Below are positions 27,346 through 30,748 of a stretch of DNA of 41,541 nucleotides, piece by piece (the stretch's first letter is position 1; each line of letters opens with the position of its first letter). The stretch is taken from assembly GCA_009918005.1 (NCBI GenBank), contig RGDC01000003.1:1-41541 (forward strand), in the 5' to 3' direction. The position numbers and the translations under genes were made by a program. This DNA comes from Actinomycetota bacterium. GTDB lineage: Bacteria; Actinomycetota; Actinomycetes; S36-B12; UBA5976. Under the pieces are notes generated by a model. It did not search any database and was not told where the DNA came from. It saw only the letters and a list, made by a program, of their open reading frames with translations.

Positions 27346-27478
27346 CTGACAACCTTAAGGGTGGTGGGACACACTAGCTGGAACTAGATCTAGCGAGAAA
27401 TCCAAATATCCCCGGTTTTAGTACAAAAATATTGGGTTCCTCGTAGGCACAATTTGCTTGAGCTGAGCTGCACTGTAT

Positions 27479-27511
27479 TATTTAGATGTATCGATTTGAT
27501 ACATCTAAATA
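27479..27511. promoter_or_regulatory. Perfect 14-5-14 palindrome, probable PadR-family operator
   Basis: TATTTAGATGTATC-gattt-GATACATCTAAATA, ending 26 nt before the padR start. AT-rich and not placed after a gene end, so an operator fits better than a terminator. Confidence 0.8.
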
Positions 27512-27537
27512 TCCTATTTTTAAGGGTTGGACTCGCC

Positions 27538-28128
27538 GTGGCCAAAAGATCTGAAGCTCTAGAGCTTGCGATCCTTGGCGTACTCGCCCAAACCCCGCAA
27601 CATGGCTACGAACTTCGTAAGCGATTAATTTCAGTGCTTGGTCTGTTCAGCACAATTTCATATGGTGCTTTGTACCCAGCACTTAAGTCATTAGTCGAGC
27701 GTGGACTTCTGGTTGAACAAGATGAAGTTGGAACTGGAAAATACCCTAAGCGAGCTCGCATTACTTATGCCTTAACCGACGCTGGCTTAGCTCACTTCAA
27801 TGCAATGGTCGCCGATAGTGGGCCAGGCGCTTGGGACGATGACAACTTTGCAGTGCGGATGTCACTGTTCGGTCAAACCGAAGTAAATACTCGAATTCAT
27901 ATTTTGCAGGGTCGTCGCAGTCGAGTTGAAGAGCGCTTAGCAAACCTGCAAACAAACTTGTCTAAAGGCAGAGAGCGCTTGGACTCATACACTTTAGAGC
28001 TGCAACAACATGGCCTAGATGCACTTGAACGCGAAGTGCGTTGGCTAAACGAACTTATCTCGCGAGAGCAATCGCAGGGTGCCGCAAACAGCGGTAACTC
28101 CCAAGTCTCGCAAGTTAACAAAAAGTAA
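27538..28128 (+). CDS. PadR family transcriptional regulator (Rv0047c-like)
   Basis: LELAILGVL, HGYELRKRL, SYGALYPAL, Y.LT..G, EREVRWL.ELI motifs. Start GTG 27538; upstream of ino1. Confidence 0.92.
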   Translation: MAKRSEALELAILGVLAQTPQHGYELRKRLISVLGLFSTISYGALYPALKSLVERGLLVEQDEVGTGKYPKRARITYALTDAGLAHFNAMVADSGPGAWDDDNFAVRMSLFGQTEVNTRIHILQGRRSRVEERLANLQTNLSKGRERLDSYTLELQQHGLDALEREVRWLNELISREQSQGAANSGNSQVSQVNKK

Positions 28129-28167
28129 GACCGTAAGAAAAATTCACTGACAACTAGGAGGCTTACA

Positions 28168-29238
28168 GTGAGTGAAGTTAGAGTAGCGATCGTTGGTGTA
28201 GGAAACTGCGCATCATCGCTGGTACAGGGCGTTGAGTATTACAAAGACGCTGATCCAAAGGCACAAGTCCCCGGGCTTATGCATGTGCAGTTCGGTGACT
28301 ATCACATTAAAGATGTGAACTTTGTTGCTGCATTTGATGTTGATGCGAAGAAAGTTGGCCAGGATCTTTCCGACGCAATCTTTGCTAGTGAGAACAATAC
28401 GATTAAGTTTTCCGATGTCCCGCCGACAGGTATCACAGTTCTTCGTGGACATACCTATGACGGACTTGGTAAGTACTACCGTGACATGGTTGTTGAATCC
28501 GATGATTCACCAGTTGATGTTGTTAAGGCACTTAAGGATGCAAAAGTTGATGTATTAGTTTGCTATCTTCCGGTTGGATCCGAAGAAGCTGCAAAGTTTT
28601 ACGCACAGTGTGCAATTGATGCTGGTGTCGGATTCGTTAATGCGCTTCCAGTATTCATCGCTGGTACAAAAGAATGGGCCGACAAGTTCACTGCAGCTGG
28701 AGTTCCAATCGTTGGAGATGACATCAAGAGCCAAGTAGGTGCCACAATCACCCACCGGGTTCTTGCCAAGCTATTTGAAGATCGTGGCGTAACTGTTGAT
28801 CGCACTTATCAACTAAATGTTGGCGGCAACATGGACTTCATGAACATGTTGGAGCGCGATCGCTTGGAATCGAAGAAAATTTCCAAAACCCAGTCAGTGA
28901 CATCTCAGCTACGCGACAAGATCGATCCTCGCAATGTTCACATTGGCCCAAGCGATTACGTTGCTTGGCTTGATGATCGCAAATGGGCTTTCGTTCGCCT
29001 TGAGGGACGTGCGTTCGGCGATGTGCCATTGAGCCTTGAATACAAGTTGGAAGTTTGGGATTCACCAAACTCAGCTGGTGTCATCATCGATGCAATTCGT
29101 GCTTGCAAGATTGCAAAAGATCGTGGCATTGGTGGCCCTATCCTGAGTGCTTCAAGCTACTTCATGAAGAGTCCACCGGTTCAATACGACGACACTAAGT
29201 GCCGTCAAGAAGTTGAAGACTTCATTGCTGGTAAGTAG
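28168..29238 (+). CDS. ino1: Myo-inositol-1-phosphate synthase
   Basis: [55 protein letters not shown] motifs; SD AGGAGG. Confidence 0.97.
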
Positions 29239-29260
29239 CTGCTAGTAAGTAATTTATAGA

Positions 29261-29345
29261 ACCGTTGCGCTTCGGGTGTAGTAGACACATAAGCGGCCTC
29301 CTTTACTAAGGGTCCCTAGTTCGACTAGGGGCCCTTAGTTGTTTA
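29261..29345 (+). ncRNA. Candidate small RNA with exposed anti-SD (CCUCCUUU) between a 5' stem and a terminator
   Basis: TAATTT -10-like at 29250-29255; CCGUU/AGCGG closing stem; CCTCCTTT at 29297-29304; 16-bp hairpin then UGUUU. Confidence 0.5.
29305..29344 (+). terminator. Intrinsic terminator after ino1 and the candidate sRNA
   Basis: ACTAAGGGTCCCTAGT-tcg-ACTAGGGGCCCTTAGT-TGTTT. The single imperfection is a U.G wobble on the + strand. Confidence 0.85.
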
Positions 29346-29404
29346 TCTCGGTAATTTTCTTCCCAAAACGACAATTTCATAAAACTAGGGGTAGCGTGAA
29401 TTAA

Positions 29405-30748
29405 GTGAATCGCCCAAGTGCTAGATCGTTTTCGTTCTTGCGACATGCCAATGCGCGAGAACTTCTTGGCGCGCGCATCTTTGGCCAAGCGGGAGATGGT
29501 TTACTGCAAACCGCATTAGCGACCTTCGTATTATTCTCCCCACAGCGAGAATCAGATCCACGCAAAATTGCATTGGCATTTGGCATACTACTTTTGCCGT
29601 ATTCAATTGTGGCTCCCTTTGTTGGAGTCTTTATTGATCGCTGGTCTCGCCGCACGATTTTGATTCGTGCAAATTTGCTTCGTGTGGTGACAATGATTGC
29701 AATTGCGGTGGTGATTGCTAACAGTTCAGCGAGCGTAATCCTTGCAGTTCTTGTCCTCATCAGTCTTGGCGTCAATAGATTCGTGCAAGCTGCGCTGTCT
29801 GCCTCACTTCCCCATGTAGTCGATGAGGGTGATCTCGTCCCAGCTAATGCACTTTTTCCTACCTTAGGAACCACTGCTGCCTCGTTAGCAGCCGCGCTTG
29901 GTATTGCTACCCAAAACATTTTAGAAAATTCAGATGCAATTAATGCCGGCTTAGTTATTGCGGGTTCGGTTCTTGCTGGAATAGCTTCATTGATTGCACT
30001 TCGCATCACTCCAAAAGATATTCTTGGTCCTTACCTGGTTGAGTCCGCAATGCGCGATGAATTTAAAAATGCTTTATCGGGACTCGCTGCTGGATTCAAA
30101 TACATGATTCGTTCTGGCAGAACTTTAAGTAGCATGTCAGCCGTAGCGTTACAAAGATGGGCCTTTGGAGCTTTGACGGTGCATACCCTGTTGCTTTCGC
30201 GAAATTCCTGGCATACCGCTTCTACCGCCGACCAGGCAGTGCTGGATTTTGGGCTTTGTGCAGGCGCTGCTGCTACTGGTGCATTTACCGCTGCGATCTT
30301 GAGTACCTTCTTACTGAGTGATCGCGCCGATAAAACCAAATCTGGATCTGACGGTTCACCTCATCGCCAGGTTCACCTGATCGCAGCAATGACAGTCGCT
30401 ACTGGTTTGAGTGCCGTGGTGTGTTTTGTTGGTTACCAAATAGGAACACTGCCAGCAATCTGTGCCACTGCTGCTTCGCTGGGTTTTGCCGGACAGTTGC
30501 TAAAGATCAATGCTGATACAACTATTCAACGAACTATCGATGATGCGCATCGCGGTCGGGTGTTTTCAATTTTTGACATGATGATAAACATTTCTCTGGT
30601 GCTAGGTATCACCACTTATGCGTTAATTGGTGGCATCAGAGAAAACATAAATGTGGGCGCAGCATATTCCGTTGTATTGCTCAGTTGCAGTACCGGATTG
30701 GCTATCTTTTTACTTCGTAAATATCGCGCAAATCAGAGGTCGCTCTAG
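29405..30748 (+). CDS. MFS transporter (Rv0037c-like)
   Basis: R..GQ.GDG, PF.GVFIDRWSRR motif A, RGRVFSIFD; about 12 hydrophobic segments. Leaderless start: TAGCGT, 7 nt, GTG. Confidence 0.9.
   Translation: MNRPSARSFSFLRHANARELLGARIFGQAGDGLLQTALATFVLFSPQRESDPRKIALAFGILLLPYSIVAPFVGVFIDRWSRRTILIRANLLRVVTMIAIAVVIANSSASVILAVLVLISLGVNRFVQAALSASLPHVVDEGDLVPANALFPTLGTTAASLAAALGIATQNILENSDAINAGLVIAGSVLAGIASLIALRITPKDILGPYLVESAMRDEFKNALSGLAAGFKYMIRSGRTLSSMSAVALQRWAFGALTVHTLLLSRNSWHTASTADQAVLDFGLCAGAAATGAFTAAILSTFLLSDRADKTKSGSDGSPHRQVHLIAAMTVATGLSAVVCFVGYQIGTLPAICATAASLGFAGQLLKINADTTIQRTIDDAHRGRVFSIFDMMINISLVLGITTYALIGGIRENINVGAAYSVVLLSCSTGLAIFLLRKYRANQRSL

Follow-up and report, generated by a model that had tools for sequence, protein, structure and literature searches.

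The short interval between the inositol-3-phosphate synthase gene ino1 and its terminator raises the question of whether it holds a small RNA gene or is simply the tail of the ino1 message. A sequence-only reading had proposed an independently transcribed RNA of ~85 nt, with its own -10 element, a 5' stem, an exposed CU-rich seed and a terminator, that would broadly repress Shine-Dalgarno (SD)-led mRNAs, and had given the ino1 3' UTR as an alternative. That alternative was rightly named: the interval appears best read as the ino1 3' UTR plus terminator rather than as a separate RNA gene.

The ino1 locus and the proposed small RNA gene

The window, by which we mean the whole 41,541-nt stretch of DNA analysed, lies in a genome (G000) of 1.5 Mb with 48% GC that is 84% complete; individual gene loci that were compared, mostly ino1, carry L-numbers. 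The relevant features are as follows.

27454..28128, + strand: PadR-family regulator gene, ending 39 nt upstream of ino1
28143..28149, + strand: TTCACTG, 5' strand of a predicted start-codon hairpin; pairs with 28166-28172 around a loop that holds the SD; weak covariation
28156..28163, + strand: ino1 SD region AGGAGGCT, 5' partner in the predicted long-range helix
28168..29238, + strand: ino1, inositol-3-phosphate synthase, GTG start (TIGR03450, 685 bits against a cut-off of 638; PF01658)
29250..29255, + strand: TAATTT, proposed as a -10 element; in 1/36 genus loci, rejected as a promoter
29268..29295, + strand: lineage-restricted 3' UTR hairpin with a CGCTT/AAGCG outer and a GTGT/ACAC inner stem
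29295..29302, + strand: anti-RBS tract GGCCTCCT; seven Watson-Crick pairs and one G-U with the ino1 SD; in 33/36 loci
29305..29344, + strand: ino1 intrinsic terminator, with a 16-bp stem (hairpin 29305-29339) and a T-rich tail
29392..29397, + strand: TAGCGT, conserved hexamer resembling a -10 element, 7 nt ahead of the MFS gene's GTG start
29405..30748, + strand: MFS transporter gene (PF07690), downstream neighbour of ino1

The ino1 open reading frame encodes a 356-aa Ino1, and its closest named relatives (L051-L054, from Candidatus Nanopelagicales or an uncultured actinobacterium) are 98-99% identical. The padR and ino1 genes are likely to be co-transcribed, and TAGCGT is likely to be the leaderless promoter of the MFS gene. 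Where the PadR-family ORF begins there is an AT-rich inverted repeat of 15 bp (27479-27511), possibly an operator, or a hint that the true start is further downstream. In M. smegmatis, deletion of the PadR-family NapM raises ino1 (PMC13340245). The intergenic region downstream of ino1 is single-copy, with no other copies in G000 by blastn-short, and a terminator scan of the window called no terminator-like site from the ino1 stop up to the tract; the terminator hairpin itself starts 66 nt past the stop codon (29238).

The motifs on which the proposed small RNA was built are all present: TAATTT, CCGTT (29262-29266) and AGCGG (29292-29296), GTGT (29276-29279) and ACAC (29285-29288), the CU-rich tract CCTCCTTT (29297-29304), the terminator, and AGGAGGCTTA in the ino1 initiation region (28156-28165). 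The tract matches what we take to be the 3' end of 16S rRNA (the anti-SD), a segment not found in this assembly of an 84% complete genome. The 29250-29350 segment folds with -36.3 kcal/mol (z -3.63; 0/200 shuffles as good), largely because of the 16-bp terminator, and the CTCC of the tract is predicted to be unpaired (P 0.75-0.96). A T-G wobble in the terminator works on the + strand only, in agreement with the strand assignment made earlier. The outer stem is drawn differently, since both minimum free energy folding and a consensus drawn from 11 close relatives pair CGCT(T) at 29268-29272 with (A)AGCG at 29291-29295, not CCGUU with AGCGG. The inner stem has one two-sided change among these 11 relatives. 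The seed is conserved, in 33/36 loci; the 5' hairpin is found in part of the genus only. Short tandem duplications lengthen the ino1 3' UTR in L016 and L019 (stop-codon region) and in L013 (inner-hairpin region), and the tract still lies beside the terminator in each.

Comparison across the genus bears directly on whether this is a gene. Of 41 genus genomes, 39 yielded ino1 loci (one had no match and one a fragment only), and three of these are cut by contig ends, leaving 36 scorable. The hexamer TAATTT occurs 733 times in the genome but in only one of the 36 genus 3' UTRs, and a promoter scan calls none here. Neither the UTRs nor the final 60 nt of the ino1 coding sequences of these 36 loci share a TAnnnT, whereas a TAnnnT 5-8 nt before the start codon downstream of the terminator, which served as a positive control, is kept in 33/36. 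The distance from stop to CTCC ranges from 2 to 110 nt, so that the RNA body has no defined length, and in L034 and L035 the pairing tract begins immediately past the stop codon, so that the intergenic stretch could hold neither a promoter nor a 5' domain. With no conserved -10, a variable stop-to-CTCC distance and a lineage-limited 5' hairpin, a stand-alone gene of ~85 nt is not supported. No described RNA family matches the window: Rfam 15 gave no hits at or above gathering score, nor any under E-value thresholds, and the best local matches (BjrC68, 15.6 of 39 bits; suhB, 14.4 of 41) are to the terminator only.

Covariation of the tract with the ino1 ribosome binding site

A CTCC-containing tract lies just ahead of the ino1 terminator in 33 of the 36 genus loci, in most of them 0-3 nt from the called hairpin, and is complementary to the RBS of ino1 in the same genome, 1.1 kb upstream. 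We anchored a table of base pairs on GGAG in the RBS and CTCC in the tract for these 33 loci; the four anchor pairs are invariant and uninformative by themselves. At offset +4, the base after GGAG against the base before CTCC, all 33 loci are paired, with G:C in 26, A:U in three, C:G in two and U:A in two. Pairing extends to offset -1 (the base 5' of GGAG; 30/33), +5 (29/33) and +6 (24/33; U-G in 14 and U-A in 10), and beyond these offsets drops to 4-11 of 33. An exchange of U-G and U-A, as at +6, is tolerated by RNA only and points to RNA rather than DNA. The sequence-only reading had paired UAAG and the tract with the ino1 initiation region across a 3-nt bulge; the comparative data favour instead a contiguous helix, AGGAGGC(T) with (G)GCCTCCT.

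In a tree built from the ino1 coding sequences (47 rows, UTRs excluded) the A:U type forms one clade and the U:A type another, each with support of 100/100, and the two C:G rows fall within a single 100/99 clade together with a truncated locus. Each non-G pair type is thus confined to one clade, which implies at least three two-sided changes; the independent events that carry the covariation number only about three. The base following GGAG in the RBSs of G000 is A in 70, T in 69, G in 66 and C in 41, from which three chance matches would be expected about 1 time in 64 by our own arithmetic. The mean longest match is 7.67 with the own partner, against 6.74 with a partner from another genome (200 permutations, highest 7.33) and 3.94 for shuffled UTRs; because kin are not independent, the clade count rather than the permutation test carries the weight. 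Five metagenome loci show pair types already seen and add no further independent event.

Perfect matches reach 12 nt in L029, L032 and L033, where the RBS AAGTTAAGGAGA is matched by the tail TCTCCTTAACTT, 11 nt in L031, and 9 nt in L023-25, L037, L039 and L040, and in L034 and L035 the RBS AAGGAGTC is matched by GACTCCTT directly past the stop. L022, L027 and L028 have no free tract and form one clade (87/71). In all three CTCC directly follows the SD, and the terminator stem of L022 itself pairs GTCTCC with GGAGGC, which copies the RBS core. Complementarity, conservation, matched changes and a fixed place beside the terminator are established at the level of sequence, and by these marks the pairing of tract and RBS is a real, evolutionarily selected RNA-RNA element. 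The core of the earlier proposal is to this extent borne out, the CU-rich tract being a conserved, exposed + strand anti-SD element able to pair with the ino1 start region.

A match of this kind might also reflect an inverted repeat acting at the level of DNA, a minus-strand small ORF to which it supplies the SD, or chance, and we regard this group of explanations as quite improbable. In the window GGAGG is followed by ATG or GTG on the minus strand, opening ORFs of 22 and 27 codons, but across the genus such ORFs vary in length between 1 and 66 codons, 7/33 loci lack a start, and a minus-strand small ORF was rejected on these grounds. A protein or recombinase site in DNA would not be expected to vary in four matched ways, nor does the exchange at +6 suit one. 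In favour of chance, 5 of 82 hairpin-ended G000 genes carry CTCC shortly before the hairpin, but control genes fail to keep their matches. We also considered and rejected a type I toxin-antitoxin mRNA, as the ORF is that of the 356-aa Ino1 and no minus-strand ORF is conserved.

The controls were the four best look-alike genes of G000, in which gene, start and hairpin-end calls are heuristic. Matches of at least 7 nt within the genus were found in 0/28 loci for HU, 0/28 for livF, 0/12 for ahcY and 2/19 for the rutA-like gene, against 29/35 for ino1 under the same filter, and all four look-alikes were discarded as real cases since the match is lost in relatives. The two rutA-like monooxygenase loci, L132 (G000:C196) and L187, have a 7-nt complement of their own SD before the terminator, which we treat as chance. 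A genome-wide habit of 5'/3' pairing was not found among the 82 hairpin-ended genes of G000, which behave as permuted pairings do (longest match of at least 7 in three, against 1.3 plus or minus 1.0 permuted). When neighbouring genes are ranked as partners of the tract, ino1 comes first in all six genomes (40, 30, 30, 30, 9 and 20 genes), which cover all four pair types.

These comparisons also bear on the broad repressor that had been proposed. An independently transcribed ~85-nt RNA acting on SD-led mRNAs at large would have in its favour the hairpin-seed-terminator layout and the character of the seed in the clade of the window, where AGGAGGC occurs in 11 of 1,195 predicted RBSs; the ino1 start ranks only 57th of 1,195 predicted G000 start regions as a seed partner, with 56 pairing better, so that the seed of this clade is a near-generic anti-SD. 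Incidental trans pairing of this seed with other mRNAs may occur. The seed nevertheless varies with the RBS of ino1, and its changes are not mirrored in those of rpsF, rpsR, rplI, ssb, pknB, trxA and trxB; a seed held fixed by many targets could hardly change three times. Taken with the -10 conserved in only 1/36 loci and the absence of space for a gene in L034 and L035, this makes such an RNA very improbable.

Conservation of the tract across the phylum was not found, and outside the genus it is sporadic. Excluding the genus and the Streptomycetaceae, 6 of 88 distinct loci have matches of at least 7 nt against 1.2 permuted (0/200 permutations), a small excess, where the 88 are those with a called hairpin and the control genes come from the genus only; one of the six, that in L301, is an artefact of a self-complementary word. 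The other five (L046, L135, L209, L318 and L320), from other genera or families, have a 7-9-nt complement of their own SD shortly before the ino1 terminator and are candidates for convergence. Of 45 Streptomycetaceae loci, 28 have matches of at least 5 nt against 15.8 shuffled, and none reaches 7 nt. A Streptomyces lineage (L091, L092, L096, L098, L107, L108, L109, L111, L115, L119, L126 and L127) keeps GCTCC ~16-20 nt before the ino1 terminator, complementing the SD GGAGC, a 5-nt match shared by descent.

Predicted fold-back and its alternatives

We consider it probable, from the pattern of conservation and covariation, that the tract dampens ino1 translation by a 5'/3' fold-back like that of icaR. 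The finished ino1 mRNA would fold back on itself so that the tract covers the SD region, and would thereby limit ribosome loading and lower both initiation and mRNA stability. The helix is 8 bp in the window and spans about 1,130 nt. Whole-mRNA folds close it with P 0.75-1.0 in 12/12 loci, and yet folding discriminates poorly, as foreign 3' UTRs swapped in give P 0.0-1.0 (mean 0.46, 12 swaps). In PMC12697547, anti-SD 8-mers act over hundreds of nucleotides, including from the 3' UTR, with an effect that falls with distance (44% protein loss beyond 500 nt, for a 12-mer), but anti-RBS 8-mers between two hairpins had no effect in one 3' UTR library. The tract in the window has this same two-hairpin-flanked layout, which is the main point against a fold-back.

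The covariation of tract and RBS fits action in cis and in trans alike. A tail comprising tract and terminator, cut by RNase E or RNase J, could repress other ino1 mRNAs in trans as negative feedback resembling that of CarZ and OppZ, which we think an unlikely though credible account. The seed is exposed right before a strong terminator, an AU-rich spacer and a protective hairpin lie 5' of it in part of the genus, and there is a precedent (PMC7398697). G000 encodes RNase E/G and RNase J, as well as RNase III. As in the CarZ/OppZ type, the tract is complementary to its own operon's start region. CarZ, however, needs Hfq, and no Hfq match (PF17209) was found in the 84% complete G000; 6-8 bp is moreover short for unaided intermolecular pairing, and both the UTR length (2-110 nt) and the 5' structure vary.

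Ten freshwater metatranscriptomes gave small word shares (0.05-0.15), and six were compared, as assembled contigs only. No contig from four RNA runs covers 29256-29600, although assembled contigs could not in any case reveal a discrete RNA. Two contigs of relatives do cross the ino1 stop, one (X2) running from the coding sequence through the stop to GCTCC and the other (X5) crossing the stop codon; both are unstranded, too short for bridging and possibly not RNA.

The initiation region of ino1 has a second feature. Each of the 38 genus loci that include a 5' end begins with GTG and has TCAC 24-28 nt before the start; beyond the genus, 198 of 210 loci begin with ATG. A comparable upstream complement is present in 5/210 loci outside the genus, and the background in G000 is 56/1,194. 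In local folds the GTG lies within a stem, with P unpaired at most 0.32 in 43/43, and the SD falls mostly within the loop; 84% of cells in the alignment pair against 25-42% when slid. Three core pairs are invariant, two vary on one side only, via G-U, and the covariation score is reached by 72/500 shuffles. These data lend weak support to a predicted second hairpin that would bury the GTG start; the TCAC word could instead be protein-binding. Translational coupling to padR through a fixed distance from stop to hairpin was discarded, as the distances vary and the upstream-stop call is unreliable in several loci.

This hairpin figures in a further alternative, in which the long-range pairing is real but does not repress: closed ends might shield the leader from nucleases, or the tract might compete with the start-codon hairpin and so tune or help initiation. 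We think this improbable. A whole-mRNA fold of L001 does swap the local hairpin for the long-range helix and free the GTG, and in hbs a 5'/3' helix modulates RNase Y cleavage (PMC5737220). The helix at ino1, however, covers the GGAG core in 33/33 loci, so that the 30S subunit should be excluded, and SD-covering tracts lowered expression in PMC12697547 and PMC3868564.

More tentatively, fold-back and hairpin may be joined in a two-stage, protein-free RNA lock, in which the start has switched to a GTG, a hairpin that buries this GTG holds the SD in its loop and the tail abutting the terminator docks on that loop from 1.1 kb away. Ino1 would then be made mainly during transcription, and the lock, re-keyed at least three times, might be a recurrent means of controlling inositol supply by RNA alone in place of transcription factors. 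So read, the lock would have been built on a core biosynthetic mRNA by one genus of small-genome freshwater Actinobacteria, with similar tails sporadic in other families.

Relation to known systems

The sequence-only reading regarded the element as an undescribed kind of system, and here we differ, because the class of mechanism is known from icaR and from CarZ and OppZ. A search of open-licence PMC and bioRxiv found no description of such an element for ino1 or for Actinobacteria. Closest to the fold-back that we favour is icaR of S. aureus (PMC3868564), in which, as predicted here, the SD region of a gene is paired by a CU-rich motif in the 3' UTR of that gene; at ino1 this motif is conserved in 33/36 loci with four pair types. 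The icaR pairing is predicted to block initiation and promote decay, with cis versus trans action left open, as it is here; it is Hfq-independent, and Hfq was not found here. The two differ in that icaR has a long 3' UTR and ~40 nt of complementarity, whereas ino1 has a short UTR, a 6-12-bp helix and a tract abutting the terminator; icaR encodes a regulator in Firmicutes and ino1 a biosynthetic enzyme in Actinobacteria; and the ino1 element is backed by four-way covariation rather than by experiment.

Reporters in B. subtilis (PMC12697547) show that the RBS is paired by short anti-SD tracts lying far downstream, with losses in both translation and half-life. Those tracts are synthetic insertions, whereas the tract of ino1 is natural, and kept and re-tuned by evolution. 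The same source describes natural genes as depleted of anti-SD tracts and few natural long-range 3' UTR-RBS cases as known, citing three reports. CarZ and OppZ of Vibrio cholerae (PMC7398697) resemble ino1 in that a pre-terminator 3' UTR sequence is directed at its own operon's start region, and in belonging to biosynthetic or transport genes; they are Hfq-bound, trans-acting RNase E products, whereas processing at ino1 is hypothetical and Hfq was not found.

The aapA3 and hok mRNAs (PMC6733600) offer a likeness to the two stages suggested above, as a local hairpin hides the start during transcription and a distant 3' anti-SD assumes this role once the mRNA is full-length. They are type I toxins with antisense RNA, and there is no toxin at ino1; simple 3' trimming would also not remove the ino1 tract, because it lies inside a terminator-protected end. 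In hbs of Bacillus subtilis (PMC5737220) a long-range helix joins the two UTRs of a single housekeeping mRNA, as predicted here, although that helix is of 14 bp, covers an RNase Y site of the leader and modulates cleavage, whereas that of ino1 lies over the SD.

A helix column in which all four base pairs occur in step is unusually clean evolutionary evidence for a selected pairing, and here the selection acts on an ordinary metabolic gene, over a range of 1.1 kb and with Hfq not found. Anti-SD tracts before terminators, often taken as sRNA seeds, may target their own gene, and the natural variants provide ready matched and mismatched pairs for distinguishing cis from trans action. Among icaR, hbs, hok/aapA and CarZ/OppZ, which define a known class of mechanism, ino1 is a further case of a rare class.
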